DNA of 45,413 nucleotides from Candidatus Nanoarchaeia archaeon (GCA_035288805.1 DATDZG010000036.1:1-45413), one strand, 5' to 3'; shown: positions 264 through 42,212, numbered from the stretch's first letter. Numbers and translations are program-made. The notes: generated from the sequence alone by a model not told the origin.

Positions 264-323
264 TATTTCTTTTGCGAACTTTTCTTTTTAAGAAAAGCTC
301 TGCACAGCTCTTTTCTTTTTCAC
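264..323 (+). repeat. Composite T/A-rich hairpin repeat, copy R1
   Basis: TATTTCTTTTGCGAAC / TTTTCTTTTTAAGAAAAG hairpin / CTCTGCACAGCTC / TTTTCTTTTTCAC. Same module order as 1218-1284. Confidence 0.6.
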
Positions 324-328
324 ATTAA

Positions 329-337
329 TTTTATAAA
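329..337 (+). promoter_or_regulatory. Archaeal TATA-like box for the NIF3 gene
   Basis: TTTTATAAA ends 23 nt before the ATG at 360. The same spacing recurs at many genes in the window. Confidence 0.5.
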
Positions 338-359
338 CCATCTTTCTTTAGTATAAACT

Positions 360-1211
360 ATGAAAGCAAGTCAACTCTACAAAACACTTGAAAAAGATTT
401 CATTACTCCAAAATTGAGTGATGAATGGGCAAAACATATGACCTCTATTGCAGATTTTGTGAGTGCGAATTTTAAAAAAAGATCAATGGGTTTGGTTTGT
501 GATTTCTCAAAAGAAATTAATCACGTGTACACCGCAGTATTTCCCTCAAACCCGGTTTTACAAAGAATCCTAGATGATGACACTCAAGATGCAATGCTCT
601 TTGTTCATCACCCATCAACGTGGGATATTACGAAAGCTCCAAACGTCTTTCAGCTGATGGACAGAAAATTGCTTGAAGAATTAAAATCAAGAAGAATCTC
701 TATCTACAATCTTCATGTACCTTTAGACGATTACGGTCCATATTCTACCAGTGTTACCTTAGCAAAAGCTCTTGCAATCCAACCAGAAAAACCTTTTGCT
801 CATTATTTTGGCTCATTATCCGGAGTACTCGGAAGAACAGAAGTATCAACAGTACAGGAACTAAGAAAATTCTTTGAAAAAGCAATGGAACATAAAGTGA
901 GTTTATACTCTTATGGAGACAAGAAGATAAAAGGGGGCATTGTTGCGGTTATTGCTGGTGGAGGAAACGATGTTGATATGCTCACAGAAATTGCTGAAGC
1001 AGGAGTAAATACTTTTGTAACAGGCATTACAGCAAAGAATAGTCATTCACAAAAAGCACACGAGTTTGCAAAAGAACACGGAATCAACATCTTAGGGGGA
1101 ACGCATTACTCTACGGAGACTTTTGCATGCATTGCAATGTGCAACTATTTTAAGAAACAAGGATTGCCAGCCGAATTTATTAAGGATAAACCCGTAATGG
1201 AAGATTTATAG
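360..1211 (+). CDS. NIF3 family (DUF34) dinuclear-metal-centre protein
   Basis: 283 aa. It has the HHP motif (LFVHHPSTWD) and the C-terminal GGTHYSTE motif characteristic of NIF3/YbgI proteins. Confidence 0.75.
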   Translation: MKASQLYKTLEKDFITPKLSDEWAKHMTSIADFVSANFKKRSMGLVCDFSKEINHVYTAVFPSNPVLQRILDDDTQDAMLFVHHPSTWDITKAPNVFQLMDRKLLEELKSRRISIYNLHVPLDDYGPYSTSVTLAKALAIQPEKPFAHYFGSLSGVLGRTEVSTVQELRKFFEKAMEHKVSLYSYGDKKIKGGIVAVIAGGGNDVDMLTEIAEAGVNTFVTGITAKNSHSQKAHEFAKEHGINILGGTHYSTETFACIAMCNYFKKQGLPAEFIKDKPVMEDL

Positions 1212-1217
1212 TTTAAC

Positions 1218-1284
1218 GTTTTCTTTTTTCCGAATTTTTTTCTTTACAAAAAGAAAAAAACTCTAGCACAGCTCTTTTCTTTCA
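1218..1284 (+). repeat. Composite T/A-rich hairpin repeat, copy R2
   Basis: GTTTTCTTTTTTCCGAA / TTTTTTTCTTTACAAAAAGAAAAAAA hairpin / CTCTAGCACAGCTC / TTTTCTTTCAC. Collinear with R1. Confidence 0.6.
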
Positions 1285-1309
1285 CAAATTGACTTATCGC
1301 CTGTGCCCC

Positions 1310-1326
1310 GTTGAGATTTTCTCAAC
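1310..1326. other. Perfect 7-bp hairpin between two repeat copies, upstream of the sigma genes
   Basis: GTTGAGA-TTT-TCTCAAC in a locally GC-richer patch (CGCCTGTGCCCCG...). Function unknown. Confidence 0.3.
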
Positions 1327-1351
1327 TAGGGTTCACAATTGTTTACATTCT

Positions 1352-1397
1352 GTTTTCTTTTTTGCGAACGTTTTTCTTTCCTAAAGAAAAGCTTTTT
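1352..1397 (+). repeat. Composite T/A-rich hairpin repeat, copy R3
   Basis: GTTTTCTTTTTTGCGAAC / GTTTTTCTTTCCTAAAGAAAAGC. Confidence 0.55.
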
Positions 1398-1404
1398 TAA
1401 ATTT
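1394..1404 (+). promoter_or_regulatory. Archaeal TATA-like box upstream of sigma gene 1
   Basis: TTTTTAAATTT lies about 26-28 nt upstream of the ATG at 1430. No Shine-Dalgarno sequence is present. Confidence 0.45.
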
Positions 1405-1429
1405 TTCTATCCTCTCCAAATAGAGGAAT

Positions 1430-2305: not shown

Positions 2306-2329
2306 AAATAAAAAAGAACCCCTTATATA

Positions 2330-3241
2330 ATGTCAAGATTACAATACAAAGAAGAACCAACAAAGCAGGATATGAGAGCAATCTCTCAATATCTTAAAGA
2401 GCTGGGAATAGAAGATGTATTGTCAAAAGAAGAAGAATATTCTTTGGTAAAAAGAATGAAGCTAGGCGATGCCGAGGCAAAAGAAAAACTAATAACCTCA
2501 AATCTTCGTTTTGTAGTTTCAGTAGCAAACAAAGAAGCAAGAAAAAGATTTTCTCATTTAAGGGATGACCCATCAGAGTATGATGAAGCAAAAAGTGATC
2601 TTATTTCAGAAGGAAACCTGGGATTAATGAAAGCTATAGAAAGATTTGATGAAACTCAGGGGTATAAACTCATCAGTTATGCAGTCTTTTGGATTAGACA
2701 GGCAATGATAGTTTACTCTTTAAACCAGTCACATACAGTAAGGCTTCCAAGCAATAGAATTGCAGTGCGTTCAAAAGTGAGAAAATTAGAAGATAGCCAT
2801 TATGTCGAAACAGGAGAAAAATTAACCCTGGATGAAATCGCATGTGAAACAGGATTAACAAAATCATCTATCCGTAATGCATTTGCAGTGGACAACAAAC
2901 CAATACGCCTCGACATCCCAATATCTAATGACACAGAGACAACACTTTATGATTTCTTGACCGACCCCCATCAACTCTCCCTGGAGGCATCACTATTAAA
3001 ATCAAAACTCAGGAAAGATATAGAATATTCACTAAAAGGGCTTGCAGAAAGAGAAGCAGAGGTTATCAGATTGTATTTCGGATTAGAAGATAATGGAGAT
3101 GGAAAAACTTTAGAAGAGATAGGAATTAAATTTGGAGTAACAAGAGAAAGAGTCAGGCAAATAAAGGAACAAGCAATAAGAAAGTTAAGGCACCATTCAA
3201 GAAGAGGGAAACTTGAATCTCATTGGAGAGAAATGAATTAA
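2330..3241 (+). CDS. Sigma-70 family RNA polymerase sigma factor, paralog 2
   Basis: 303 aa. Motifs: LITSNLRFVVSVANKE, DLISEGNLGLMKAIERF, YAVFWIRQAM, HTVRLPSNR, EREAEVIRLYFGL, VTRERVRQIKEQAIRKLRH. An extra insert (KRFSHLRDDPSEYDEAKS) lies between regions 2.1 and 2.2. A TTTAAAAATA box at 2301-2310 overlaps the stop of paralog 1. Confidence 0.9.
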   Translation: MSRLQYKEEPTKQDMRAISQYLKELGIEDVLSKEEEYSLVKRMKLGDAEAKEKLITSNLRFVVSVANKEARKRFSHLRDDPSEYDEAKSDLISEGNLGLMKAIERFDETQGYKLISYAVFWIRQAMIVYSLNQSHTVRLPSNRIAVRSKVRKLEDSHYVETGEKLTLDEIACETGLTKSSIRNAFAVDNKPIRLDIPISNDTETTLYDFLTDPHQLSLEASLLKSKLRKDIEYSLKGLAEREAEVIRLYFGLEDNGDGKTLEEIGIKFGVTRERVRQIKEQAIRKLRHHSRRGKLESHWREMN

Positions 3242-3258
3242 TAAACAAGGAAAATCAA

Positions 3259-4116
3259 ATGGCAAATTATGAAAGAGAACCAACATCAATAGGTCTAGAT
3301 TCTTTGGACATTTATTTCAAAGAAGTTAAATCATCAGATAATCTAAGCTATGAACAAGAAAGAGATCTTACAAGAAGAATAAGGTCGGGAGACGAAAGTG
3401 CAAGAGAGGAGTTAGTAGTAAAAAATCTCCGCTTTGTTATCTCTGTTGCAAGAGAGTATAGAAATCTAGGATTGCCTTTAGAAGATTTAATAGGTTGTGG
3501 AAATCTAGGATTAATGAATGCCATACAAGGATTTGACGAAACAAAAGGATTCAAATTTATCAGCTACGCAGTCTTTTGGATTCGACAAGCAATCCTGCAA
3601 AAATTAGCAGAAGAAAGAACAGTAAGAGTTCCTTTAAATCAAATAGACCTTTACTTGAAAATAAAAAAACAAAGAGATGAATACGCAAAAGATAACAATG
3701 GAGAAGAAATCTCTTTAGAAGAACTTGCACAAAAAACAGGCTCAACAACAGCCAAGATAGAATATGCTCTTAAAGCAACGAGAACAAATTTATCCCTAGA
3801 CGCACAATTTGATGAAGATGGAGAAAGAAATTTATATAATCTTCTTGCCTCAAGTGAAACTTCACCCGAACAAGCAGCTTATTTATCCGAGCTCAAAGAA
3901 AAAGTGAGAAGAGCATTAAGCCAGTTAGAACAAAATGAAGCAGAAGTTATCTCTTTGTACTTTGGATTAGAAGATGGAAGGGATAGAATAACCTTAGAAG
4001 AAATCGGCAAGCAGAAGGATTTAACTCGAGAAAGAGTCAGGCAAATCAAAGAAAAAGCCCTAAAGAAGTTAAGGCATAGGAATAGAGGCCTTCATGAATT
4101 ATACAAAGAGATGTAA
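3259..4116 (+). CDS. Sigma-70 family RNA polymerase sigma factor, paralog 3
   Basis: Motifs: LVVKNLRFVISVAREY, DLIGCGNLGLMNAIQGF, YAVFWIRQAI, RTVRVPLNQ, QNEAEVISLYFGL, LTRERVRQIKEKALKKLRH. The start is set at MANYEREPTS by alignment with the EPT(S/K) N-termini of paralogs 1 and 2. The ORF track start at 3223 is less likely. Confidence 0.88.
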   Translation: MANYEREPTSIGLDSLDIYFKEVKSSDNLSYEQERDLTRRIRSGDESAREELVVKNLRFVISVAREYRNLGLPLEDLIGCGNLGLMNAIQGFDETKGFKFISYAVFWIRQAILQKLAEERTVRVPLNQIDLYLKIKKQRDEYAKDNNGEEISLEELAQKTGSTTAKIEYALKATRTNLSLDAQFDEDGERNLYNLLASSETSPEQAAYLSELKEKVRRALSQLEQNEAEVISLYFGLEDGRDRITLEEIGKQKDLTRERVRQIKEKALKKLRHRNRGLHELYKEM

Positions 4117-4165: not shown

Positions 4166-4420
4166 GCCGCGATGGCACAACCCGGTACTGCGCAAACCTT
4201 TTCTTTTTGAAAAAAGAAAACCTTTACGAAAAGAAAAACAAAGGGCGTTGGCCTGGAAGAGCCTTTTTAGAAAAAAGGTTCGCGAAAAAACGCGATAGGA
4301 AAACTTCCGTACCAGTGAGCTTGTTTCCGCAAGGATATCCCGGTTCAAAAATAAGGGTGCCCACCGGTCCCCTTATAAACCCTCGGGAACCATGAGGGTG
4401 CTGAAAGTCCGGGTCGCGGC
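4166..4420 (+). ncRNA. Structured RNA gene of uncertain identity (RNase P RNA-like motifs; see findings)
   Basis: There is no credible ORF. A TATA box lies at 4134-4141 and a T5 run at 4426-4430. The 5' GCCGCG (4166-4171) pairs with the 3' CGCGGC (4415-4420), and ACCCGG (4180-4185) pairs with CCGGGT (4409-4414). Local hairpins are ACCCTC/GAGGGT (4379-4399) and CC-GCAA-GG (4327-4334). GAAAGTCCGGG (4403-4413) equals the RNase P CR-I core, and ACAACCCGGTA (4177-4187) resembles CR-V. Confidence 0.6.
4196..4290 (-). repeat. Two tandem copies of the hairpin repeat (reverse orientation) inside the ncRNA gene
   Basis: Reverse complement reads CGTTTTTTCGCGAAC-CTTTTTTCTAAAAAGG-CTCTTCCAGGCC... and GTTTTTCTTTTCGTAAA-GGTTTTCTTTTTTCAAAAAGAAAAGG. 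Module order matches R1-R3. Confidence 0.5.
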
Positions 4421-4500: not shown

Positions 4501-4959
4501 ATGAAAACAAAAAATATTCTAACATTTTTGGCAATAGTAATGTTGATAGCTTTAACTGCATGCAACTCAAAACAAACAAGTCCAGATACAGGAACAATAA
4601 CAACAGGCACACAAGCGTCAACAGGCGCAGAACCAACAACAACTTTAAAATCATCAGCAACAGGACAAGCAGTCTCGGAAACAATAAAAGAGATTAACAT
4701 CGAAGCATACAATTTCGGATTTAATCAAGACAAGGTTGCAATAAATAAAGGAGATAAAGTAAGACTCCGCATTACAAGCAAATCAGGAACTCATGGTGTA
4801 AAAATCCCAGGATTAGGTTTATCAACAGGAAAAATTTCCCCTGGAGAAGAAAAAATCTTAGAGTTCACAGCAGATAATCCTGGAAGCTACGATTACTATT
4901 GCAATGTTCCTTGCGGTGAAGGCCATAAAAGTATGAAAGGAACTTTGGTGGTGCAGTAA
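4501..4959 (+). CDS. Secreted lipobox protein with a cupredoxin domain and a CuA-like ligand motif
   Basis: The signal peptide ends in the lipobox LTAC (MKTKNILTFLAIVMLIALTAC), followed by a T/S/G-rich linker. The C-terminus has THG...CNVPCGEGHKSM, matching C-x3-C-G-x2-H-x2-M as in COX2/N2OR CuA sites. An AGGAGGAGG Shine-Dalgarno sequence lies upstream. Confidence 0.7.
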   Translation: MKTKNILTFLAIVMLIALTACNSKQTSPDTGTITTGTQASTGAEPTTTLKSSATGQAVSETIKEINIEAYNFGFNQDKVAINKGDKVRLRITSKSGTHGVKIPGLGLSTGKISPGEEKILEFTADNPGSYDYYCNVPCGEGHKSMKGTLVVQ

Positions 4960-5369
4960 TGACCACTCCTTCTTTATTTCCCTTAAGGCTTTCTTTCCTA
5001 AAGAAAGGCTTAAAATACTCCCCAATAATCATGCGTATTTCAATAGCCTTAGTTTTCTTATGGTTCGGATTTAATCAAATATTTTTACCGGAAGATTTTC
5101 TTGGCTACCTGCCAGATTTTACATCTTCATTCAATCCATCATTACTAATACTCTTAAACGGTTGTTTAGAAGTAATCCTGGGAATCTTTTTAATTCTAGG
5201 ATTATTCACAAGGCTAGCATCATTCATCTTAGCAATTCACTTGCTAGGAATCATGTTCTCTCTTGGTTACAACGAGATAGAAGTAAGAGATTTTGGATTG
5301 ATGATGGCAACATTCGCTATTTTCCTTCATGGAGAAGATGAGTGGTGCTTGGATATTAAACGAAAATAG
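4959..5369 (+). CDS. DoxX-family small membrane protein
   Basis: 136 aa with 4 predicted TM segments. RISIALVFLWFGFNQIF is DoxX-like. Its start overlaps the cupredoxin stop (ATGA-type coupling). Confidence 0.55.
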   Translation: MTTPSLFPLRLSFLKKGLKYSPIIMRISIALVFLWFGFNQIFLPEDFLGYLPDFTSSFNPSLLILLNGCLEVILGIFLILGLFTRLASFILAIHLLGIMFSLGYNEIEVRDFGLMMATFAIFLHGEDEWCLDIKRK

Positions 5370-6613: not shown

Positions 6614-7975
6614 ATGAAAAGGCAACTAAACTGGGAGGAAGAAATAAAACAACTCTTTCCAAAATCGAGTATGGAATTTTTAGTTGAGACGACTAAAGGA
6701 CTAGTTAGAGAGGTCAACTTAGATAACGCTGCTACCACCACACCATTTTCAGCAGTAAACCAGAGAGTAGCTGAATTCCTAAAATCATATGGAAGTGTTC
6801 ATCGGGGTTCAGGTCAAAGATCAATAACATCTACCAAGGATTATGAGGAAGCTAGAAGTAAAATCCAACGATTCGTAGGAGCATCTCTAGAAGATTATGT
6901 TATATTTACAAAAAACACCACTGAAGCAATAAATCATGCAGCAGAATTATGGTCTAACATTCCAGGAAAAGTTCTTGTTTCTGATATTGAACACTCCTCT
7001 AATCTACTTCCATGGTTAGCGAGAAATGAAGTAATACAATATAGGACAAATAGTGATGGGACTCTAAATCTTACTTCTATCAAAGAAATGTTCAAAAAAC
7101 ATCGAGATATAAAACTCCTAGCAGTTACAGGTAGTTCAAATGTAACAGGATACAAACCACAAATTCATAATCTTGCAGAACTTACACACAAGCATAGTGC
7201 TATGATTTTAATTGATGGTTGTCAGTTGATTCAACATGAAAAAATTGATGTTCTTCCAAACAATGATCCAAGACATTTAGATTTCATTGCTTTTTCAGGG
7301 CATAAAATGTACGCTCCTTTTGGTGTCGGAGTTCTTATCGGACAAAAAAAGTTTTTTGATCAAGCAACCCCTTACCAAATAGGTGGTGGAAATCTAGCAT
7401 ATATCTCAAGAGATTTGAAGATAAAAAGATTCAATAGAGTACAAACTCATGATCCAGGAACACCTAATGCTGTTGGAGCCATAGCACTTGCAAAATCAAT
7501 AGACATTATCAAATCAATAGGTTATGATAGAATTTATGAGTATGAGTCTAATCTGGTTAGAAGGGCATATAAAGGGTTAAGTAAAATGGAGGGTGTAGAA
7601 GTTTACCTCTCTGAATCAGGATTAGGAAGTATTATTCCTTTTGATGTTACAGGAATAGATAGTAGACTAACTGCCGAGGTTCTAAGAGATGATTATGGGA
7701 TTGGAGTTAGGGCTGGTACATTTTGTGCGTATGAATTAATACGAAAAATCAAGAACATCTCTGATAAACAAGATCAAAGAATTACAGAAGAAGTTGAGAG
7801 GGGGATTACAAGGAATATTCCAGGGGTTGTCAGAGCTAGTTTTGGTTTAGTGAATAATGAAGAAGATGTTCTAAGGTTAGTTTCCGCTATCAATGAAATT
7901 GCAAGAAATGGGATAGAGCATTATTCTCAAGTATACAGGCAAGATACATCAACAGGATTTTGGATAAAGGAGTAA
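6614..7975 (+). CDS. PLP-dependent aminotransferase class V (cysteine desulfurase / C-S lyase-like)
   Basis: 453 aa. It has FSGHKMYAPFGVGVL (PLP-lysine context), TKNTTEAIN and DPGTPN motifs typical of the SufS/CsdA/NifS fold. Confidence 0.7.
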   Translation: MKRQLNWEEEIKQLFPKSSMEFLVETTKGLVREVNLDNAATTTPFSAVNQRVAEFLKSYGSVHRGSGQRSITSTKDYEEARSKIQRFVGASLEDYVIFTKNTTEAINHAAELWSNIPGKVLVSDIEHSSNLLPWLARNEVIQYRTNSDGTLNLTSIKEMFKKHRDIKLLAVTGSSNVTGYKPQIHNLAELTHKHSAMILIDGCQLIQHEKIDVLPNNDPRHLDFIAFSGHKMYAPFGVGVLIGQKKFFDQATPYQIGGGNLAYISRDLKIKRFNRVQTHDPGTPNAVGAIALAKSIDIIKSIGYDRIYEYESNLVRRAYKGLSKMEGVEVYLSESGLGSIIPFDVTGIDSRLTAEVLRDDYGIGVRAGTFCAYELIRKIKNISDKQDQRITEEVERGITRNIPGVVRASFGLVNNEEDVLRLVSAINEIARNGIEHYSQVYRQDTSTGFWIKE

Positions 7976-11519: not shown

Positions 11520-11798
11520 CTAAAACTCCATCAATTTTTTATCCCAAAATGGCCAAGGGGAATGCCCAAAATGTATTAAAGCCTCAACTTTTAAATTCTT
11601 CAATTCTAAAGGCAAATCGCAAGAACCAAAACAAGAATCCATCCAAATAAGTATCTTTGCTCCAGTATTCCTCTCCAATTGCTCAGAAATCTCAACCGCT
11701 TTTGGCTTCAAACCATCAGGCATTTGTATTGCAACAAGCTTAAACTTCTCCTTATTAATAAATTCAATCGCATCCTGTATTTCAAAGTCATATTCCAT
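11520..11798 (-). pseudogene. dph2: N-terminal stub of diphthamide synthase Dph2
   Basis: The 92-aa ORF has KLVAIQMPDGLKPKAVEISEQLE...ILIWMDSCFGSCDLP...EALIHFGHS. This is collinear with the first ~80 aa of archaeal Dph2 (about 340 aa). The remainder is absent, and the next gene starts 2 nt downstream. Confidence 0.6.
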
Positions 11799-11804
11799 TT
11801 TCAG

Positions 11805-11963
11805 TTGTTTTCTTTTTGTAAAACTTTTCTTTGTTTTCCAAGGTTTTTTTCTTTGAAAAGAAAAAAAGCTTTATCGTATTCCATTTTATTTTACATCCTT
11901 AGTTTTCTTTATTCCCCAAGGGCTTTTTCTTTTACAAAAGAAAAAGGGCTTTATCGTATTCCA
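11805..11963 (+). repeat. Two tandem ~80-bp units of the hairpin repeat, each ending in CTTTATCGTATTCCAT
   Basis: The units end at 11884 and 11963 with an identical 16-mer. Its reverse complement ATGGAATACGATAAAG mimics the dph2 start ATGGAATATGAC at 11798. Confidence 0.65.
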
Positions 11964-12064
11964 TGAGCTATAAATGCAAATAACTCCTTTTAAAACTTTC
12001 TATAATTACAATAGCAATCTTTTTATTCTCACTCATACTTCTTTAAACTTATCAAGAGGTTAAC

Positions 12065-12500: not shown

Positions 12501-13223
12501 ATGAAAATTGCTCTTTTTGATTTAGATGAAACTTTAGTAAGAGCAGAATGCAGGAACTATGCTTTAGAAGTGATCTGCCAGGATATCTCAAAAAAAACAA
12601 AAATTCCAGTAAAAATCCTTTCAAATAGCCTCATCCAAATCTGGCATCAAGAAAAAGATCCAAGAAAAAAATATGATTGGGACCAACATATCAAAAAACT
12701 TTGCTCAGAAGTAAAAGTAGAGTTCATATATAATTATGAAACCTCAATCAAAAAAAATATTAACAAAGCAAAACTATTTCCAGATGTCCTGCCTTTATTA
12801 AAATACCTAAAGAAAAATAAATATAAAATCTGCATAATCACAAATGGGTTAAAAAAATACCAATATCCAATAATGAAAAAATTAGGCTTATTGAAATACA
12901 TAAGCAAAGTTTACTCTCCTCACCAAGGGTTTCTAAAACCAGACCCAAGAATCTTTAATAATGAGCTAAAAAACAAACAAGTCTCGTTTTACGCAGATGA
13001 CCAATTATATCAAGGAGTATTTCTGGCAAGAAAAATCCACACAAAATCAATTTTAATCGACAGAAAATTCAAAGCAAAAAATCTAAACAGCTATCTAAGA
13101 AACAAGCTAAGTAATGAGCTAAAAGAAAGAAGATTTGATGTTTCTTTAAAGCATCTTACTCCAGATTACATTGTAAATGATTTAAGAAAAATAATTAAAA
13201 TCCTGGAAAATGAATCTAAATGA
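12501..13223 (+). CDS. HAD-superfamily hydrolase
   Basis: Motif I is ALFDLDETLV (DxDxT), with ITNG and a YADD-type later motif. Confidence 0.65.
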   Translation: MKIALFDLDETLVRAECRNYALEVICQDISKKTKIPVKILSNSLIQIWHQEKDPRKKYDWDQHIKKLCSEVKVEFIYNYETSIKKNINKAKLFPDVLPLLKYLKKNKYKICIITNGLKKYQYPIMKKLGLLKYISKVYSPHQGFLKPDPRIFNNELKNKQVSFYADDQLYQGVFLARKIHTKSILIDRKFKAKNLNSYLRNKLSNELKERRFDVSLKHLTPDYIVNDLRKIIKILENESK

Positions 13224-13265
13224 GCCTTTTTCTTTTGTAAAAGAAAAACCCTCGGGAAAAAGAAA
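13224..13265 (-). repeat. Hairpin repeat copy filling the whole HAD-ogt spacer
   Basis: The plus strand reads GCCTTTTTCTTTTGTAAAAGAAAAACCCTCGGGAAAAAGAAAA. This is the reverse complement of the TTTCTTT-CCCGAGGG-TTTTTCTTTT-loop-AAAAGAAAAAGGC module. Confidence 0.65.
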
Positions 13266-13577
13266 ATGAATTTCAACGAAAAAGTGTATAAGGAATGTAA
13301 GAAAATTCCGAAAGGAAAAGTTTCTACATATAAAGAAATAGGCAAAAAGCTAAACACAAGAGCATATAGGGCAATAGGACAAGCATTAAAAAATAATCCT
13401 TATCCCATACAAGTTCCTTGCCATAGAGTTGTTTCTTCTCAAGGAAAATTGCATGGATTTAAAGGAAAAACCAAAGGAAAAGCATTGAAGGAAAAGCAAA
13501 GAATGTTAGAAGAAGAAGGTTTAACAATCATTAATAATAAAATCCAGGATTTCCAAGATAAACTATTTACTTTCTAA
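13266..13577 (+). CDS. ogt: Methylated-DNA-protein-cysteine methyltransferase, DNA-binding/active-site domain only
   Basis: 103 aa with the PCHRVV active-site motif preceded by the TYKEIGKKL HTH. Confidence 0.8.
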   Translation: MNFNEKVYKECKKIPKGKVSTYKEIGKKLNTRAYRAIGQALKNNPYPIQVPCHRVVSSQGKLHGFKGKTKGKALKEKQRMLEEEGLTIINNKIQDFQDKLFTF

Positions 13578-18338: not shown

Positions 18339-18581
18339 ATGAACCAAACAACAACAATCAAACTTCAGGGAATAACAAAGCAGGGATTAGACCATCTCAG
18401 AGAATACAAAAATGAAAGTTACGATGAAGTTATTCAGAAAATGCTCTCTATTGTTAAAAATATCAAAAAACAGCCAGCATTAAGTCAGGAAGCAATTATC
18501 TCTATAGAAAAAGCCAGAGAGAGAATAAAAAAAGGAAATTTTCTTACTGAAGAACAAGCAAGAAAGAGGCTTGCTCTATAA
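18339..18581 (+). CDS. Putative antitoxin of the downstream RelE/ParE-like gene
   Basis: 80-aa ORF whose stop overlaps the start of the toxin gene (ATAATG). A TATA-like ATTTATATA lies about 24 nt upstream. Confidence 0.5.
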   Translation: MNQTTTIKLQGITKQGLDHLREYKNESYDEVIQKMLSIVKNIKKQPALSQEAIISIEKARERIKKGNFLTEEQARKRLAL

Positions 18582-18835
18582 TGTATCAAGTTATCTTTGA
18601 TGAAGCCGCTATCAATTTCTTAAATAAATTACCCAATTCAATAAAGGAAAGAATTTTTAACAAGATTATTGCCTCAAAGGAAAATCCTCTTCGTTACTTT
18701 GAAAGACTTTCAGGAAGGCAGGATTACAAATTAAGGATTGGAGATTACAGAATTATCGCAGACATCTCACAGGAAGAGAAGGTAATTGAAATCACTTTAA
18801 TAGGACATAGAAAGAATATCTATAAGAACATTTAG
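18581..18835 (+). CDS. RelE/ParE-family toxin
   Basis: 84 aa. YKLRIGDYRIIADISQEEKVIEITLIGHRKNIY is the typical RelE/ParE C-terminal beta-sheet motif. Confidence 0.7.
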   Translation: MYQVIFDEAAINFLNKLPNSIKERIFNKIIASKENPLRYFERLSGRQDYKLRIGDYRIIADISQEEKVIEITLIGHRKNIYKNI

Positions 18836-19471: not shown

Positions 19472-19556
19472 ATTCTTCTCATAACCACTTTTTATTTTTT
19501 TTAGTTAAGGTTTCTTTTTATAAAAAAAAGTTAAAAGAAAAAAGAAGAAAATCTTC

Positions 19557-23414: not shown

Positions 23415-23435
23415 CCATTCATATTCCATAATCTT

Positions 23436-23549
23436 GGACGGTCATAGGAGTCTGGTTCCACCAGTTCCCATTTCGAACACTGAAGTTAAACAGGTTTCCG
23501 TTCCTTGCTGTACTGCACTTACGTGTGGGAATCTTGGAAAGCTGTCCTC
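23436..23549 (+). rRNA. rrf: 5S rRNA (stand-alone gene)
   Basis: GGACGGTCATAGG...CCCATTTCGAACAC.GAAGTTAAAC...GTACTG...TGGGAA... is collinear with archaeal 5S. The helix I pairing is GGACGG/CTGTCC. A TTATTTTT terminator lies at 23551-23558. Confidence 0.9.
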
Positions 23550-23560
23550 CTTATTTTTCT

Positions 23561-23643
23561 AAAATAGCACAACGTTTTGGGGATACAAGACCCTTGTTTC
23601 TTTTTTAAATACAATGTTTTTTATTTACAAAGAAAAAAAATTG
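23561..23643 (+). repeat. Composite repeat copy inserted after 5S, bracketed by a duplicated 5S 3' end
   Basis: It contains TTTTGGGGATACAAGACC (identical 18-mer at 42658-42675), followed by a T-rich TTTTTTATTTACAAAGAAAAAAAA hairpin. It is flanked by TTGGAAAGCTGTCCTCCTTATTTTTCT (23534-23560) and TTGGGGAAGCTGTCCTCTTATTTTTCT (23645-23671). Confidence 0.65.
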
Positions 23644-28695: not shown

Positions 28696-28750
28696 TTTTT
28701 TCCTTTGTTTTTTCTTTCCCGAAGGTTTCTTTTTTACAAAAAAGAAAGGC
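28696..28750 (+). repeat. Hairpin repeat copy filling the whole rpl13-rps9 intercistronic spacer
   Basis: TTTTTTCTTTCCCGAAGG / TTTCTTTTTTACAAAAAAGAAAGG. Confidence 0.7.
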
Positions 28751-29176
28751 TCATCCGTAGTGTTTCTTTCCTCTTAACAGTACAGATAATTCCTCTAAAG
28801 TAACATGTCTTAAGCTTTTTGATTTTCCAATATCGGCTTTTTCTACTTTCATGGCTTCCTTGCCTTCAAACTGGTCAGGAACCCCAAGATAGCATTTTAC
28901 TCTTTTAAAAGCTTCTTGACCTCTTGAAACCTTCCAAGGCAGCATTCCTCTAATGGTTCTTTTCAAGATTCTATCCGAAGTTTTAGGAAAGTAAGGTCCT
29001 TTGAAAGGGTTTCCTCTTTTAACCTTGGCATCATAATGTGCAAGAATCATTTTCTTGCTTCCTGTAATGCAGGCCTTATCAGCATTGATAATATCAACCT
29101 GTTGCCCAAGCAATACCTGCTTCGCAGCATAAGCAGCTATTTTTCCAGCAATCCCATTTTCAGCATCGATTATCAT
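28751..29176 (-). CDS. rpl13: 50S ribosomal protein L13 (uL13)
   Basis: MIIDAENGIAGKIAAYAAKQVLLGQQVDIINADKACITG is the typical uL13 N-terminus. An alternative GTG start at 29182 would overlap the upstream ORF stop. Confidence 0.92.
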   Translation of the reverse strand: MIIDAENGIAGKIAAYAAKQVLLGQQVDIINADKACITGSKKMILAHYDAKVKRGNPFKGPYFPKTSDRILKRTIRGMLPWKVSRGQEAFKRVKCYLGVPDQFEGKEAMKVEKADIGKSKSLRHVTLEELSVLLRGKKHYG

Positions 29177-29178: not shown

Positions 29179-29574
29179 TCACACCAAAAATTGAGAGCGT
29201 GCACGTTCTATCACTGCTAAAAGCGTAAATGCAGCAACCTTCTCATTTTCTCCTATGTCTTTATACAATTCCACAACACCCATATGCCCCTCAAGTACTT
29301 CCACAAAACAGGCATCTATTCCACGAGGATTATGATGTTGGATGTCAGTTAACGCTGAAATCTCCCCATCATCTGTTCCTTTTCTTTCCCAAATTCCAGC
29401 AATAATCCTAATAGCTTCTCCTTCCCTCATGCGATATCCAAGAGAGAATCCAAAATTCACATCATCATATTGATACCTCTTATCAAGTGTTTCAGAATTG
29501 CAAGGACCTTCTTGCCATATTCCATTTACACGTTCTGCATATCCTGTTTCAGTTCCACTATTCATCTTAACCAA
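29179..29574 (-). CDS. Hypothetical protein wedged between rpl18e and rpl13
   Basis: 131-aa ORF. Its start overlaps the rpl18e stop by 8 nt and its stop abuts the rpl13 start. It has an internal GIWQEG / GIWERKG echo. No recognised motif. Confidence 0.5.
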   Translation of the reverse strand: MVKMNSGTETGYAERVNGIWQEGPCNSETLDKRYQYDDVNFGFSLGYRMREGEAIRIIAGIWERKGTDDGEISALTDIQHHNPRGIDACFVEVLEGHMGVVELYKDIGENEKVAAFTLLAVIERARSQFLV

Positions 29575-30040: not shown

Positions 30041-30064
30041 GTTTTCTTTTTGGAAGAAAAGAAA
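30041..30064 (+). repeat. Partial hairpin repeat just 3' of the tRNA
   Basis: GTTTTCTTTTTGGAAGAAAAGAAA. Confidence 0.4.
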
Positions 30065-30067: not shown

Positions 30068-30214
30068 TGCGGAGAACAGGATTCGAAATCGCAGCCTCTT
30101 AGGATTCTCGGTTTTCTTTCCCGAGGGTTTCTTTTCCCAAAAGAAAGGCTCCTGCGTAGGCACTAAGCCACCAGCTCCTTAGGCTGGCGCGTTTGACCAC
30201 TCCGCCATCTCCGC
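30068..30214 (-). tRNA. tRNA-Leu, anticodon read as AAG, with a ~63-nt intron in the T-arm (30088-30150)
   Basis: The minus strand reads GCGGAGA-TG-GCGGAGTGGTCAAACGC-G-CCAGC-CTAAGGA-GCTGG-T-GGCTTAGTGCC-TAC-GCAGG-[intron]-TTCGAAT-CCTGT-TCTCCGC-A. It has a class II long variable arm. The T-stem GCAGG/CCTGT forms only if 30088-30150 is removed. No CCA is encoded. A TATA box lies at 30240-30247. Confidence 0.75.
30110..30149 (+). repeat. Hairpin repeat copy forming most of the tRNA intron
   Basis: GGTTTTCTTTCCCGAGGG / TTTCTTTTCCCAAAAGAAAGGC. Near-identical module to 28710-28750. Confidence 0.65.
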
Positions 30215-35483: not shown

Positions 35484-35614
35484 CTTTTGGGAATACAAAA
35501 CATTATGCTTTTCTTTGTGGATACAAAGTTTTTTTTAAATTCTTTCTTTATTTCCCGAGGGTTTTTCGTTTTGCTTTTTCTTTCCCAGGGGTTTCTTTTT
35601 ACAAAAAGAAAGGC
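35484..35614 (+). repeat. Composite repeat block (two degenerate GGGAATACAAAAC-type heads plus two T-rich/CCCGAGGG modules plus hairpin)
   Basis: CTTTTGGGAATACAAAAC, CTTTGTGGATACAAAG, TTTCTTTATTTCCCGAGGGTTTTTCG and TTTTTCTTTCCCAGGGGTTTCTTTTTACAAAAAGAAAGGCC. It ends at the helicase stop codon. Confidence 0.6.
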
Positions 35615-37003
35615 CTACATGTTGTATTGGCTTCTTCCAAAACCTCTTCCTTTAGAATCCTGATGCTCTCTTCTTCCTTCTCTTCCAGGGCTAAAGCTTC
35701 TTCTTCCATCACTATACTCTCTCTTCTCTCCAGAGTGTTCTCTTCTCCCATCAGAATCTCTCCTGCCCTGGAATCCACCACGAGAACCTCCAGAGTGTCC
35801 TCCTCGGAACCCAGAAGAACCTCTCCCTCTAAACCCAGAACCCTCCCTAAAATTTCCTCGAGAAAACTCTCTTCTCTGCTTCTGCAAATAAGGATATCTT
35901 TGAAACTCAGGAACATCAATTCTTGGAATATCCAAACTTCTATCTCTTAAAACGTTTCTAAAATTATCATGGTCTTTATTTGAAAGGAAAGTTATAGCCT
36001 CTCCAGATTCTCCCGCTCTTGCCGTTCTCCCAATCCTATGCACATAATCTTCAGAAGTTTTAGGAACATCATAATTGTAAACATAAACAACATTCTTAAT
36101 ATCCAATCCTCGGGCAGCAACATCAGTAGCAACGAGAACTTGAATATGCTGTTTCTTCAGAGAATCCAGGGCAAAATCTCTTCTATTCTGGCTTAAACCG
36201 CCGTGAATAGCCATCGCATTAACCCCATTTTTCTGCAAGTTATAGGACAAAGAATCAACTTGATGTCTTGTAGCACAAAAAACCAAAGATAAGCCTTTAT
36301 TATGTTTATTCAAAAAATGAACCATCAAAGAAAATCTTTCATATTCTTTAACCTCATAATAACTCTGTTTCAACAAGCTTTTGTCAACACTAGTTTTTGT
36401 TTTCAGCATAACAGGATTATGCAAATATCTATGGATAATGCCTTTGACATTTTCAGGGATAGTAGCGCTAAACAACAATGTTTGCCTTTGTTTGGGCAAT
36501 TGATTTATAATGCTTTCAACATCTTCAACAAAGCCCATCTCACACATCTTATCAACCTCATCTAAAACAAGAAATTTTATATGTTTTGTATTAAAAGAGC
36601 CTCTTTTCAAATGGTCCATAAGTCTTCCAGGTGTTGCAACAATAACTTCAGCTCTTCTAAACTCGTTAAATTGAGGATTAATCCCAACCCCTCCATAAAC
36701 AGCACCAACATGCAATCCAATTCCTCTTCCAAATAATTCAAAAGCGTCTTTAACCTGAACACATAGCTCTCTTGTAGGGGTTAAAACCAGTACTTGTACA
36801 CCCTTTCCCTTAACTATCTTATCAAGAATAGGTAAGTTAAACGCAATAGTCTTTCCAGAACCAGTTTCAGATTGTCCAACAACATCTTTTCCTTTATGTA
36901 TCTCAGGAATAACTTTTTCTTGGATAGAAGTTGCATCAGTAAATCCATGTTTATGGAGTTGTTCTAGTAAGCTTGGTTTCAAGCCGAATTCTTCAAATTT
37001 CAT
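35615..37003 (-). CDS. DEAD-box ATP-dependent RNA helicase with RG/RGG-rich C-terminal tail
   Basis: Motifs: Q-motif/GFTDATSIQ, SETGSGKT, PTRELC, DEVD (in LVLDEVDKM), SAT, HRIGRTARAG. The last ~90 aa are RG/RGG repeats. Confidence 0.92.
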   Translation of the reverse strand: MKFEEFGLKPSLLEQLHKHGFTDATSIQEKVIPEIHKGKDVVGQSETGSGKTIAFNLPILDKIVKGKGVQVLVLTPTRELCVQVKDAFELFGRGIGLHVGAVYGGVGINPQFNEFRRAEVIVATPGRLMDHLKRGSFNTKHIKFLVLDEVDKMCEMGFVEDVESIINQLPKQRQTLLFSATIPENVKGIIHRYLHNPVMLKTKTSVDKSLLKQSYYEVKEYERFSLMVHFLNKHNKGLSLVFCATRHQVDSLSYNLQKNGVNAMAIHGGLSQNRRDFALDSLKKQHIQVLVATDVAARGLDIKNVVYVYNYDVPKTSEDYVHRIGRTARAGESGEAITFLSNKDHDNFRNVLRDRSLDIPRIDVPEFQRYPYLQKQRREFSRGNFREGSGFRGRGSSGFRGGHSGGSRGGFQGRRDSDGRREHSGEKREYSDGRRSFSPGREGRREHQDSKGRGFGRSQYNM

Positions 37004-38935: not shown

Positions 38936-38984
38936 GTTGAAAAGAAAGAAGTCTGGTGAACCTAAAGTCTCGGTGTAAAGACCA

Positions 38985-39365
38985 TTAAGATTGTGCAGCA
39001 AAAATAGCATCCATATCTTCTCCATGCATTTCCATAATGTTTATGCGAGTATATAAAAAAGATACAGCATGAAACGGAACGATTTTGCGGTTTAAGATGG
39101 AGTAAGAAACTTCATCCCAATATTGTAATGCTTCTTTAAAATTTTTAAAAAATGTATCTGTTCCGGGTGCAAGATTTTCAGCCATCCCAGTAACCCTTCC
39201 AAAAGATTCTCTATATCTCATAAACTCAGGAGAATTAAAAGCAGCACTAAGTGTTTGATAGGCAGCACTAACTCGATAATATTCAGCATCTCTTCCATCA
39301 ACCATCACAGCTAATAACCCAGATAGAGATTTGCTAACTCTTTGAATGGGTGTTGGATTACTCAT
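38985..39365 (-). CDS. Hypothetical helical protein downstream of the macro-domain gene
   Basis: 126-aa ORF. No recognised motif. Confidence 0.4.
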   Translation of the reverse strand: MSNPTPIQRVSKSLSGLLAVMVDGRDAEYYRVSAAYQTLSAAFNSPEFMRYRESFGRVTGMAENLAPGTDTFFKNFKEALQYWDEVSYSILNRKIVPFHAVSFLYTRINIMEMHGEDMDAIFAAQS

Positions 39366-39440
39366 CTTTTAAAATAAGAAAGAAAGATTTATAAGCCTAT
39401 CTTTGAGATTTCATCAGCCACCATCCACCAATCAAAATCA

Positions 39441-40106: not shown

Positions 40107-40128
40107 AGTGCAATGACAAACTGATAGT

Positions 40129-40911
40129 TTATAAATATTTACTTTGTACCAACTTTTTAGTGGGATTAAAACAATTTTTCATCAACAAATATCCCCCAAT
40201 CAAAATCATCGCAATACTAAACCACTGCCCTAAACTCAAACCAAGATAATGTAAATCCTCTCTAAAGAAATCAACAGCAAATCTTCCAATCCCTTCTAAT
40301 AAAAGATAAGAAAAGAACACAACCCCAGCTTTTTTCTTTATTTTGCTTATCCCTAAAAGACCAAAGAAAATAAAGAATCTATATCCAGCAGCATACAGTT
40401 GTTGGGGATGTCTGCACCCATCAACCAAAGGAAACACAACGCACCAGGAAACATTTGTCACAGTTCCAACAAGTTCTCCATTAATAAAATTCCCAATCCT
40501 TCCAAAAGCCAAAGCTAATGCAGCAGGAATCACAATCACATCAGCCAGTTCCAAGAAAGCAAGTTTCCTTTTCTTAGAAAACAACCAAACAGCAATAACC
40601 AGCCCAAATAAACCACCATGATAACTCATCCCGGAAATCCCTTTCCAAAAAGCAATAATTTCTATAAGATGATTATAATAATAACCAGGACTCCAAAACA
40701 AAACTTCAAATAACCTCGCCCCAATAATTGTTCCTATAATCATCCATGCAGTTAAGTCATAACAATCATCCTTGCTCAATCCAAGTTTCTCTCTTTTTCT
40801 AATCAATAAAAACAAAGCAAGTAAGAATCCAAATAAATAAGCTAAGCTGTAATAATAAATCTTAAAGCTCCCGAGAGAGAACAAAACAGGATTTAAATCG
40901 TGGATGTACAT
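40129..40911 (-). CDS. lgt: Prolipoprotein diacylglyceryl transferase (Lgt)
   Basis: 260 aa. GMSYHGGLFG, FGRIGNFINGELVG, RHPQQLY and DFFRED match the conserved Lgt blocks one for one. Confidence 0.88.
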   Translation of the reverse strand: MYIHDLNPVLFSLGSFKIYYYSLAYLFGFLLALFLLIRKREKLGLSKDDCYDLTAWMIIGTIIGARLFEVLFWSPGYYYNHLIEIIAFWKGISGMSYHGGLFGLVIAVWLFSKKRKLAFLELADVIVIPAALALAFGRIGNFINGELVGTVTNVSWCVVFPLVDGCRHPQQLYAAGYRFFIFFGLLGISKIKKKAGVVFFSYLLLEGIGRFAVDFFREDLHYLGLSLGQWFSIAMILIGGYLLMKNCFNPTKKLVQSKYL

Positions 40912-41441
40912 CGAACGCTCATCTCTAGCCCAGCACCAATCTGCAAAGTCTCGCTGGAATATTTCTTTTTCACATAACTCAAATAAGAATCAACCTTTTC
41001 ACTATGTGAGATAATATTATCTGCAATTATCAAACAGCAGGGATTCATATTCTTCTCCAATAATTTGATATACTTAATATAATCTTTTTTAACAGCATCC
41101 AAAAATATCATATCAACTTTAACATTAAATTTTTTCAAAACTTTTAAAGCATCTCCATGAAGTAATTCAATATTTTTTAAGCCAGCTTTCTTAAAATTAT
41201 TCTTAGCCATCTCAACTTTCTTGTCATCAATTTCAATAGTGTAAACTTTTGTCTTTTTATCAGCAGAAGCCAATAAGATTGTAGAGTAACCATTTGAAGT
41301 TCCAATCTCAATAATGTTTTTTGGCCTTTTAACCTTAACAAGCAAATGCAAAAACTTTCCAGAGTCAGGTTTAATATTAAACATATACATATTCTCATTA
41401 TACACTTCAAGTTCTCTTAAAATTTTTTTAATATCAGACAT
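40893..41441 (-). CDS. Class I SAM-dependent O-methyltransferase (family 3, YrrM/CCoAOMT-like)
   Basis: It has IIEIGTSNGYSTILLA and MIFLDAVKKDY. The start is set at MSDIKK. Confidence 0.7.
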   Translation of the reverse strand: MSDIKKILRELEVYNENMYMFNIKPDSGKFLHLLVKVKRPKNIIEIGTSNGYSTILLASADKKTKVYTIEIDDKKVEMAKNNFKKAGLKNIELLHGDALKVLKKFNVKVDMIFLDAVKKDYIKYIKLLEKNMNPCCLIIADNIISHSEKVDSYLSYVKKKYSSETLQIGAGLEMSVRCTSTI

Positions 41442-41868
41442 GATAATCACCTTTAGCCCCATAAGAATTTAATAAATTCCTCATTATTGTTCTTACATCT
41501 TGTTCATGATGAGAAGTTACCTCGTTTTTGGCATACAAATCATGATGCACTCCTTCATGCTCTCTAGCCTCTCTATCAACCCCAACAGCTTCTTTAGTGC
41601 TAGGATTATACCACCCAGCAATTCCAGGAGGTAATTCTTGAGGAGTAACAAACTTAAATGTAAACCCCTCTCTTATTCTTTGCTCATAATGCGTTTCTCT
41701 TATTCTGTAAGAATCATCTACAAACTCATTTTCTTTTTCCCAAGGGTTTTTCTTTCCAGAAGAAAAAGGCTTATCTAAGACAGGTACATTCCCAATCAAA
41801 TAATATTGAGGTTTTTCAGAACTTTTCTCAGCTTCTTTAACCATATACTCTAAACTAACCCTGACCAT
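41434..41868 (-). CDS. Hypothetical protein carrying an in-frame copy of the hairpin repeat
   Basis: 144-aa ORF that overlaps both neighbours (operonic). Residues VLDKPFSSGKKNPWEKEN are encoded by the repeat copy at 41729-41770. Confidence 0.5.
   Translation of the reverse strand: MVRVSLEYMVKEAEKSSEKPQYYLIGNVPVLDKPFSSGKKNPWEKENEFVDDSYRIRETHYEQRIREGFTFKFVTPQELPPGIAGWYNPSTKEAVGVDREAREHEGVHHDLYAKNEVTSHHEQDVRTIMRNLLNSYGAKGDYHV
41729..41770 (+). repeat. Hairpin repeat copy inside a CDS
   Basis: TTTTCTTTTTCCCAAGGG / TTTTTCTTTCCAGAAGAAAAAGGC. It is close to the intergenic copy at 42170-42212. Confidence 0.65.
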
Positions 41869-42091
41869 CTAGCCACTCCATAATATCATCATCCTGATTT
41901 TCCCTTCCAATCACATGCAAAAGCACAGGAACAGAATCTTGGCCTGAAATCTCTTTCAAAAGAGTTCTTTTGCTCTTCTCAGAAGGAACCTCAATTTTCT
42001 TATATCTAATTCTCCTTTTGGCAAGTTCTTTCTCAACTCTAACACAATAAGGGCAGCCCTCTAATCTGAACAAAACAAGATTTTTTTCCAT
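41855..42091 (-). CDS. Glutaredoxin/NrdH-like thiol-disulfide oxidoreductase
   Basis: It has the CPYC motif (LFRLEGCPYCVRVEKEL) and ...SVPVLL. The start is set at MEKNLV, 22 nt after a TTTATATAA box. Confidence 0.75.
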   Translation of the reverse strand: MEKNLVLFRLEGCPYCVRVEKELAKRRIRYKKIEVPSEKSKRTLLKEISGQDSVPVLLHVIGRENQDDDIMEWLDGQG

Positions 42092-42132
42092 ACCCTTGTA
42101 AAGAATATGCATTATATAAATTTTTGGTTAAG

Positions 42133-42212
42133 CTTTGTTTTCTTTTTCCCAAGGATTTCTTCTATATGCTTTCTTTTTCCCAAGGATTTTTTCTTTGCAA
42201 AGAAAAAAGGCT
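42133..42212 (+). repeat. Two tandem hairpin-repeat modules upstream of the glutaredoxin operon
   Basis: GCTTTGTTTTCTTTTTCCCAAGGATTTCTTC... and GCTTTCTTTTTCCCAAGGATTTTTTCTTTGCAAAGAAAAAAGGC. Confidence 0.65.

Follow-up and report, generated by a model that had tools for sequence, protein, structure and literature searches.

What does a short T/A-rich hairpin do that recurs between genes, inside a coding sequence and inside a tRNA gene of one archaeon? The question is raised by a 45,413-nt stretch of DNA from a Candidatus Nanoarchaeia archaeon (GCA_035288805.1 DATDZG010000036.1:1-45413; the whole stretch is called the window below), in which a preliminary description, made from the sequence alone, had noticed a dispersed composite hairpin module. 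We find that the module is an element of about 50 bases made of three tracts and a core that covary with one another, that copies are gained by insertion, and that the same architecture recurs in introns of stable RNA genes and in many other archaeal genomes. The explanation that we prefer, with a probability of about one half, is an insertion element of DPANN archaea that resembles repetitive extragenic palindromes (REPs) and has a conserved triplex-plus-pseudoknot fold.

The Hairpin Family Exceeds Chance Expectation

Hairpins were counted when they had a perfect polypyrimidine/polypurine (Y/R) stem of at least 7 pairs and a loop of 2-6 nt. Fifteen lie in the window, compared with a mean of 1.1 (maximum 4) in dinucleotide shuffles and of 1.3 (maximum 5) in local 60-nt block shuffles. 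A strict module pattern has 4 exact matches in the window against 0.00 expected in shuffles, and a repeat search of the window returned a 55-nt family with 8 copies. Fifty copies, drawn from the window and 42 other loci, served to build a covariance model (R1); run on the window with filters off, it finds 12 full-length copies, all at E<=0.034, plus about four that are degenerate or partial. The hairpin excess and the model bear out the initial claim of a dispersed family in both orientations and in varied contexts, and the shuffles, which had been proposed as a control, exclude chance at matched AT content.

Three Tracts and a Core Covary

Read along the pyrimidine-rich (T) strand, the element has the order Y1-CCC-NN-GGG-Y2-loop-R3-GGC-N'N'. 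Y2 and R3 form a perfect Watson-Crick hairpin, with the proximal 4-5 pairs always U-A; over the 50 copies the Watson-Crick structure is 99.8% paired, and there is not one G.U among about 400 hairpin base pairs. The two bases in the core loop, NN, covary with the N'N' that follows GGC (GA/TC, AA/TT, AG/CT, GG/CC), such that pair 22-60 is GC in 27 copies and AU in 23, and pair 23-59 is AU in 39, GC in 10 and GU in 1 (n=50). No shuffle or slide control reached the observed covariation, and since the pattern used to search genomes left N'N' free (as it did Y1 beyond TTT), the NN-N'N' signal is unbiased. The anatomy first described, a T-run, a GC core and a hairpin closed by GG/GGC, needs recasting as a three-tract mirror/inverted design whose core loop pairs with the two bases after GGC.

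The third tract follows a different rule. Y1 is the mirror image of Y2, and hence the parallel (Hoogsteen) complement of R3. When the columns of Y1 and R3 are aligned with the core as anchor, G in R3 faces C in Y1 in 17/18, 8/8 and 14/16 instances, and sliding the columns by +/-1 destroys the signal. Examples of mirrored tracts are TTTTCTTTTCTTT with AAAAGAAAAGAAA (locus L008; L numbers denote loci throughout), CTTTCTCTTTTT with GAAAGAGAAAAA (L020), and CTCTTTCTTT with GAGAAAGAAA (L017). Copies with a mixed-sequence distal stem retain only the proximal T/T/A runs, which is expected if a triplex needs a purine run. In composition the tracts are A/T-rich with isolated G/C, as pyrimidine-motif triplexes prefer and as is found in MALAT1. 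We know of no copying mechanism that generates mirror repeats, and the only rationale for them known to us is a pyrimidine-motif triple helix; the mirrored Y1 and Y2 therefore point to such a helix, with T.A-T and isolated C+.G-C triples. The element also has the two features that define a single-strand triplex motif, a homopurine/homopyrimidine hairpin and a third tract in Hoogsteen register. Tract and flank tables were read by eye, pair counts were checked by computation, and the folding tools used model Watson-Crick pairs only.

Other arrangements of the tracts were considered and rejected. A direct repeat of Y1 and Y2 is contradicted by asymmetric copies, in which the distances from C to the core are equal on both sides (6,3/3,6; 5,3/3,5; 3,5/6,3). 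If Y1 instead paired with R3 in Watson-Crick fashion, a direct repeat would be favoured, and none is seen. The 2x2 GG/GG gap within the solo module fits neither a K-turn nor a bulge-helix-bulge.

Taken together, the pairings could be accommodated in a single fold. NN and the adjoining G would pair with C and N'N', giving a 3-bp helix stacked under the hairpin across the GG/GG gap, which the CCC could fill. NN-GGG-Y2 would then be continuously paired, to the tail, then to the CC of the core and then to R3, as in an H-type pseudoknot, and Y1 would lie in the major groove of the hairpin, parallel to R3, forming T.A-T and isolated C+.G-C triples. One pair of orthologous copies bears on this fold. 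The copy at 11897-11955, in the dph/PBP spacer, has its orthologue at L143 252-310, in a relative with 70% MGMT identity. The tracts in L143 are T4CT6, T6CT4 and A4GA6; in the window copy the core-adjacent triple has become C, C and G, a change in all three tracts, so that C.G-C stands in the window where T.A-T stands in L143. What looks like three-way compensatory change in this one example suggests that the fold has been preserved where the copy is fixed.

Copies Are Gained by Insertion and Local Duplication

Comparison of orthologous loci, which had been proposed as a check, revealed empty sites in relatives at four places, and the pairing of filled with empty sites shows that the copies are insertions. 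At the junction of the L13 and S9 genes the window reads ...GGATGA, then the module, then ATGACAAAA, and in relatives with 82% and 77% S9 identity the two genes overlap (ATGGTTAA) or abut (TAATG; L109, L110, L112). The closest relative, L108 (87% S9 identity), has a degenerate module at this junction with another tract pattern, split by a different repeat. That repeat, an intergenic hairpin GGAATTTGGCGTGCTCAAGAAC-NNNN-GTTCTTGAC, occurs in L108 at 2890-2940 and 3445-3490, after L13 (inside the degenerate module) and after S9. The HAD and MGMT genes overlap by the 4 nt ATGA and carry no element in L143 and L144; in the window and in a 96% strain they are separated as AAATGA-module-(A)AATGA, with ATGA duplicated. 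In the open reading frame (ORF) at 41434-41868 the module is absent from the homologue P0002 and from L131, and the window shows a net gain of 63 nt, in frame. Finally, the tRNA-Leu(AAG) gene is intron-less in L113, L114 and L120, and that of the window is longer by exactly 63 nt between G53 and U54.

Variation is also seen at shorter range. A partial 31-nt Y1-core unit in the region of 42130 is present in some same-species contigs and absent from others, and tandem duplications carry pieces of the neighbouring genes: ATGGAATAYGA, a copy of the dph 5' end held by each unit of the duplication at 11805-11963, the 3' part of a tRNA (L079), and the 5' part of a tRNA (L095). In L079 (4687-4953, minus strand) a 109-nt unit of tRNA 3' part, trailer and module is tandemly duplicated; in L095 (1096-1215, minus strand) a tRNA 5' part and then a module lie upstream of the intact tRNA. 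Flanking duplications are 4-6 nt long at two junctions (ATGA/AAATGA) and 11-17 nt at the dph locus, and there is none in the tRNA. Copies are thus acquired as DNA, and local tandem duplication adds variation. The suggestion that they are REP-like, or like miniature inverted-repeat transposable elements (MITEs), gains from the four filled and empty sites and from strain-level variation of the 31-nt unit; among the genes of the window and its 10-kb extension no transposase was found, and neither a fixed-length duplication nor a hallmark of REPs and REP-associated tyrosine transposases (RAYTs) was seen.

The Element in tRNA and rRNA Genes

The interrupted tRNA-Leu gene lies at 30068-30214 on the minus strand, and its 63-nt non-canonical intron, at positions 53/54, occupies 30088-30150 (minus). 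The 5' 48 nt of this intron are a module (30102-30155, plus, as located by the model) in R-sense, by which we mean that the transcript carries the purine-rich strand; copies whose T strand is the sense strand are called T-sense. Modules in tRNAs are always R-sense, start 0-4 nt after the 5' splice site, and give an RNA of the form N1N2GCC-U-run-loop-A-run-CCYNYGGG-A-run. Besides the window tRNA, hosts include L069, L064, L095, L087 and L096 (positions 37/38) and L015 and L036 (T-loop and other positions). The 3' end of the intron, A-run-GGCN'N', is predicted to pair with the 5' N1N2GCC-U-run and so to close the intron; in the window tRNA-Leu the predicted partners of the 3' end, AAGAGGCUGCGAU, are the 5' AGCCUUU and the exon. 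Removal of the insert restores a canonical tRNA-Leu, and the intron-less orthologues align exactly across the 63 nt. In L036, exon UUC would pair with intron GAA in a bulge-helix-bulge, giving a mature loop UUCAAAU.

Copies are also found in rRNA genes. The 23S rRNA genes of L007 and L100 carry an R-module, a spacer and a T-module at two different conserved sites, with near-identical first halves. These composite introns are predicted to fold as long hairpins (z-scores -2.5 and -4.5) with closing helices, and have the ends GGCC... and ...GGCU(C/U), formed by an inverted pair of modules; solo copies have no terminal inverted repeats. R-sense copies are present in the 16S rRNA genes of L050 and L074. 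From these sequences the element is the probable core of DPANN non-canonical introns in stable RNA genes, and not an insertion tolerated in the mature RNA; the tRNA intron is the only copy inside an RNA gene of the window, where two had been claimed, and those close to the 23S and 5S genes are located immediately 3' of these genes.

Interrupted tRNA genes of this kind are easily missed. ARAGORN finds no tRNA in the window, the T-arm intron hiding tRNA-Leu, and both the Rfam tRNA model and ARAGORN miss the tRNA genes at L015 3240-3610 (plus) and L036 6230-6372 (plus), which have two or more long introns, each started by a module. The anticodon of tRNA-Leu is AAG, with a wobble A, also in the orthologues of L113, L114 and L120; the same oddity has been reported for ARMAN-4 and -5 (PMC3239211).

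Distribution Across Genomes

One genome per species, for 185,579 species, was scanned with the pattern TTTCCCRRGGGTTT-N12-24-AAAGGC, and at least 107 loci matched. The matches that bear a hairpin are in archaeal metagenome-assembled genomes with titles in Aenigmat-, Micr-, Pace-, Woese-, Iain-, Parv- and Altiarchaeota, Nanobdellati and a few others; bacterial matches lack the hairpin and serve as a chance background. The covariance model recognises 89 copies in 76 of the at least 107 scanned loci, and at least 60 archaeal genomes, the majority from many different DPANN phyla, have the same architecture. The family would have lost credit had copies been absent from the rest of the genome; they occur in same-species contigs, which come from groundwater metagenomes, and in many other genomes, and the same design across DPANN phyla disposes of the idea of a feature peculiar to this genome. 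An origin in viruses or plasmids was rejected on finding only 2 matches in 2.9 million viral contigs. Rfam holds no matching family at the gathering threshold or at E<=10, and our literature searches found no description of the element. No copy is present in 88 kb around S9 in 23 relatives or in a 10-kb same-species stretch beside the window (about 16 genes), so that the density of copies is lineage-specific and patchy. These comparisons indicate that the conserved property is the predicted fold and not the sequence, and that the element is widespread in DPANN archaea.

Orientation and Positions of the Window Copies

The purine-rich strand is transcribed in most copies. R-sense and T-sense copies stand at about 12:5 in tandem-gene contexts and at least 10:0 in tRNA introns, and at ten other loci R-sense predominates, often with the element abutting or overlapping the upstream stop codon (TGA-GCC, TAA-GCC, TAG-GCC). 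In this arrangement the stop codon's last two bases pair with the core loop. R-sense sites are ones that need read-through: an intron, a coding sequence, and operon junctions with a promoterless downstream gene. T-sense sites lie after the 23S rRNA and NIF3 genes and after tRNAs (L078, L079), and they flank RNase P RNA (L022) on either side; a T-run often follows. An orientation-dependent effect on RNA is plausible. The T strand is the plus strand in 11/14 window copies, whatever the gene direction; as a discriminator between replication and transcription, strand bias was set aside, 11:3 and about 12:5 being too small and too confounded.

Among the R-sense copies of the window, the one at 13218-13274 (minus; 69 bits) exactly fills the HAD-MGMT junction and that at 28700-28756 (plus) the L13-S9 junction, each with ATGA on either side; the downstream genes, MGMT and S9, have no promoter of their own. 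At 35536-35620 (plus) a partial Y1-core-Y2 unit (35536-35565) is followed by a full copy (35566-35620), and the TAG stop of a DEAD-box helicase gene abuts GCC. A similar pair, a partial 31-nt unit (42130-42160) and a full copy (42161-42217), occupies 42130-42217 (plus), with a TAA stop 4 nt from GCC. The copy at 41721-41776 (plus) is in frame in the N-terminal variable part of the ORF at 41434-41868, as the claim of a copy inside a coding sequence required. After the third sigma-like gene, a full copy at 4190-4246 (minus; 42 bits) stands in tandem with a degenerate one at 4255-4302 (minus; E=0.27), and the tRNA intron completes the group.

The T-sense copies, all on the plus strand, begin with a degenerate one at 255-304 (core GCGAAC, tail GCTC; E=0.2), 18 nt past the 3' end of the 23S rRNA and followed by a T-run and then by the NIF3 promoter-like TTTTATAAACC. 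A full copy at 1211-1267 (core CCGAAT; 37 bits) starts 7 nt past the NIF3 stop codon, and a variant at 1345-1398 (core GCGAAC; E=0.034), followed by TTTTTTAAATTT, lies upstream of the first sigma-70-like gene. The copy at 4962-5015 (core CCCTTAAGG, tail GGCTTAA; 28.6 bits) lies past the stop codon of the cupredoxin gene and before the probable start of DoxX at about 5031. The remaining two copies, e (11819-11875, plus) and f (11897-11955, plus, the orthologue of L143 252-310), form an 80-nt tandem duplication in the divergent dph/PBP spacer. Gene callers read through modules: DoxX is called from 4959 (4959-5369, plus), the family-like start being the ATG near 5031, and a 95-aa ORF at 11679-11966 (plus), probably spurious, runs through the module there.

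Most of the copies listed at the outset were recovered by the model, and the one at 4962-5015 had been overlooked. Two listed sites, 30041-30064 and 23617-23638 (within 23561-23643), are bare hairpins; the first, a Y/R hairpin at 30043-30064, lies just 3' of the tRNA and lacks core and third tract. A supposed degenerate copy at 19508-19550 is not significant (E about 2). The 18-mer head ascribed to some copies, TTTTGGGGATACAAGACC, is exact at 23575-23592 and 42658-42675 and has 3 mismatches at 35485-35502 (plus), against 0.06 expected. It is a separate conserved element outside the module and, viewed on the minus strand, lies about 40-65 nt upstream of two gene starts.

The view that the modules are neither plain terminators nor plain promoters is upheld by their varied contexts. 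As promoters they were rejected because they lack a TATA box; canonical TTTATAAACC / TTATAAAT boxes instead precede NIF3, the tRNA and the gene that starts at 6614. As general terminators they were rejected on the strength of the copy-free 10 kb beside the window, of the copies inside tRNA and rRNA genes, and of S9 and MGMT, which follow R-sense copies and lack promoters of their own.

Setting of the Window

The window has a GC content of about 35%. It starts with the 3' end of an archaeal 23S rRNA gene (1-246, plus) and has a 5S rRNA gene at 23434-23550 (plus), 23 kb from the 23S gene and unlinked from the rRNA operon. Its proteins include archaeal EF-2, PheRS alpha and beta, and ribosomal proteins L18e, L13 and S9, and homologues of its MGMT protein carry the source labels Nanoarchaeota or Woesearchaeota. 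The DNA accordingly belongs to a DPANN archaeon. Three sigma-70-family paralogues stand in tandem at 1430-2305, 2330-3241 and 3223-4116 (plus) in this archaeal genome; their translations show motifs of regions 2 and 4, and called genes on the same-species contig L138 match Pfam Sigma70_r2 and r4. A type II toxin-antitoxin pair (DUF7557 and a ParE toxin; 18339-18835, plus) adjoins the ribosomal protein S10 gene, and a 131-aa ORF without Pfam match (29179-29574, minus) lies between the L18e and L13 genes, a place taken in L108 by two short ORFs. Between about 10 kb and 45 kb the cumulative GC skew declines steadily.

A Proposed Structured Insertion Element and Its Alternatives

How could one element occupy such different sites? 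As a REP-like insertion element it would be moved by an agent that recognises the fold of the single-stranded T strand. Copies are located at stop/start junctions, where ATGA is regenerated, in frame in a variable coding region, and in spacers, and would persist there because these are places where they are harmless. The purine-rich strand would be the one transcribed wherever read-through is needed, in tRNA introns, operon junctions and coding sequence. Within RNA genes, the 5' N1N2GCC-U-run may pair with a 3' A-run-GGCN'N' contributed by a second, inverted copy, complete or vestigial, and this pairing would be the closing helix of a bulge-helix-bulge-type intron removable by the splicing endonuclease. 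Three of the 4 T-sense copies of the window lie at ends of transcription units, where the folded RNA could act as a 3'-end cap or an aid to termination.

Several observations weigh against this explanation. The variable length of the flanking duplications is unlike a classical transposase footprint, selection at operon junctions alone would demand the duplicated ATGA, and no transposase or nuclease gene is found among the called genes or ORFs of the 45-kb window and the 10-kb extension. Triplex formation, movement, the bulge-helix-bulge structures and any function are what we infer, the triplex from covariation only; the Watson-Crick part by itself is marginally stable (z-scores +0.5 to -1.5), and the bulge-helix-bulge of L036 and the hBH of the window tRNA were drawn by hand. 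The coordinated change in the orthologous copy argues for function at that site, not mere selfishness. Moreover, the triplex-suited strand is antisense in most transcribed contexts, and a role of the fold in RNA therefore cannot be general. Even T-sense copies may be read through: the one at 4962-5015 stands 22 nt before the DoxX start, no promoter intervenes and read-through would be needed, and T-sense modules are transcribed through in the two 23S introns.

One alternative is an RNA element of the host, in which the T-sense transcript forms a U.A-U / C+.G-C triple helix that blocks 3' exonucleases and/or helps a U-tract and aCPSF1 terminate, with R-sense copies stopping antisense transcripts on the opposite strand or arising as by-products. 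Its topology would be that of ENE+A, an element for nuclear expression with its A-tract (U-tract 1, short GC stem, U-tract 2, A-tract with isolated C+.G-C), and the T-sense positions at transcript ends and the apparently compensatory evolution of the orthologous copy are as it would predict. We nevertheless regard it as unlikely, given that most copies, including all of those in tRNA introns, are R-sense, that T-sense modules sit inside 23S rRNA genes, that empty sites show recent insertions, and that the copy-free 10 kb and 88 kb speak against a general terminator. Somewhat less likely still is a structure acting in DNA, an intrastrand triplex of the H-DNA type formed when the T strand is single-stranded or the duplex negatively supercoiled, which might buffer supercoils at divergent or tandem junctions, pause replication or serve a structure-specific protein, its mobility being incidental through triplex-provoked slippage or duplication. 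Mirror repeats define H-DNA, and conserved bacterial PIT/BoxC/TMECO repeats are tied to local instability (PMC4666352); the missing G.U pairs, a conserved copy in a divergent, perhaps untranscribed spacer, tandem duplications that carry flanking gene fragments, and the T strand on the plus strand in 11/14 copies all fit. However, the 11:3 bias falls short of significance and is mixed up with gene direction, the orientation of copies in tRNA introns strictly follows transcription, and the spliceable ends of the insertions in RNA genes would go unexplained.

A further alternative is a mobile bulge-helix-bulge intron that would spread via abundant RNAs (tRNA, rRNA and ribosomal-protein mRNAs) and be copied back into DNA, the solo intergenic copies being relics. 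Enrichment in and around stable RNA genes and the ribosomal-protein operon, exact insertion into tRNA without duplication, and the same composite intron at two different 23S sites agree with such spread, and transposition of introns has been proposed in Thermoproteales, as cited in PMC3239211. We find this route improbable: no reverse transcriptase is known or seen here, the direct duplications at operon junctions are DNA-level footprints, and the coding copy preserves the reading frame, as though it were translated rather than removed by splicing. The dullest account, that an AT-rich genome of about 35% GC throws up poly-T/poly-A of low complexity by chance, has one point of substance, namely that shuffled U/A-rich modules fold almost as well as real ones; we give it practically no credence, because the shuffle controls (15 hairpins against 1.1 expected), the NN-N'N' and Y1-R3 covariation and recurrence in many genomes rule it out.

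The REP-like insertion element can also be put in a bolder form, which we offer tentatively and hold to be distinctly less probable: that archaeal triple-helix 'knots', selected for three-strand complementarity and dependent on orientation, are spread genome-wide and seed the non-canonical introns of DPANN archaea, as a counterpart of eukaryotic introners built on a triplex in place of terminal repeats. Among prokaryotic repeats the family would be the first whose triple helix is backed by covariation of three tracts in dozens of genomes. The puzzling non-canonical introns of ultrasmall archaea, like their fragmented tRNA genes, find a concrete source in it, since the same module lies between genes and in tRNAs and rRNAs and its gain is shown by intron-less orthologues. 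Whether triple helices beyond eukaryotes and viruses serve to cap RNA 3' ends or act as structures in DNA also becomes testable. In practical terms, gene callers are led astray by the module (false N-termini, read-through ORFs) and standard finders overlook tRNAs because of it; it also marks hot spots of indels and duplication in DPANN metagenome-assembled genomes.

Comparison with Known Systems

Bacterial PIT-type repeats belong to the purine (G-rich) class of triplexes. The archaeal element is instead of the pyrimidine motif (T.A-T, C+.G-C), has an additional covarying core-tail helix (the pseudoknot), and also serves as a tRNA and rRNA intron core and lies in frame in coding sequence. The PIT/BoxC/TMECO repeats are nonetheless the nearest concept, being intrastrand triplex repeats that are dispersed between genes, with three tracts on one strand that fold back twice, a conserved design and unusually variable loci, and they had no promoter or terminator activity in earlier work (Holder et al., 2015; PMC4666352).

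With REPs, bacterial interspersed mosaic elements (BIMEs) and MITEs the element has in common short, abundant hairpins that point either way, occur in clusters or tandem arrays, lie mostly at the ends of genes and are present or absent among relatives, and the filled and empty sites at four loci are those of mobile DNA. Unlike REPs and BIMEs, it has no GTAG-type head in its consensus and no RAYT or transposase among the genes of the window and its 10-kb extension, and it is not confined to extragenic DNA, with copies in coding sequence, tRNA and rRNA genes. It departs from MITEs in the length of its target duplications (4-6, 11-17 and 0 nt), and from both groups in its constrained mirror third tract and in a structure common to many phyla.

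The ENE+A elements of MALAT1, MENbeta, KSHV PAN and transposons resemble it in tract order; they have U.A-U triples with isolated C+.G-C, as its T strand would, and sit at transcript 3' ends, as some T-sense copies may; the topology of U-tract, stem, U-tract and A-tract is taken from a description of ENEs (PMC6633196). Those elements are eukaryotic or viral and single-copy, whereas the archaeal stem amounts to no more than CCC-NN-GGG, with a loop that pairs with the 3' tail, and the ENE-like layout is found on the T strand, which is antisense to the local transcript in most copies (4/14 window copies are T-sense).

Among introns of ultrasmall archaea, the positions 53/54, about 59/60, D-loop and 37/38 match reports for ARMAN-2 (PMC3239211), and intron transposition and disruption of tRNAs by mobile DNA have been described in archaea (PMC3293823). 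We found no shared intron core described in those two papers, whereas the present module is common to introns and intergenic DNA. Like archaeal bulge-helix-bulge introns, it is inserted exactly relative to intron-less orthologues, and tRNA fragments lie beside copies (L079, L095).

An analogy may finally be drawn with Rickettsia palindromic elements, small selfish repeats that survive inside genes by being translated or spliced. Eukaryotic introners (PMC11282704) invite the same comparison, and although both belong to other domains of life, with other structures and other splicing machinery, the archaeal element could represent a similar way for a small selfish repeat to live within genes.

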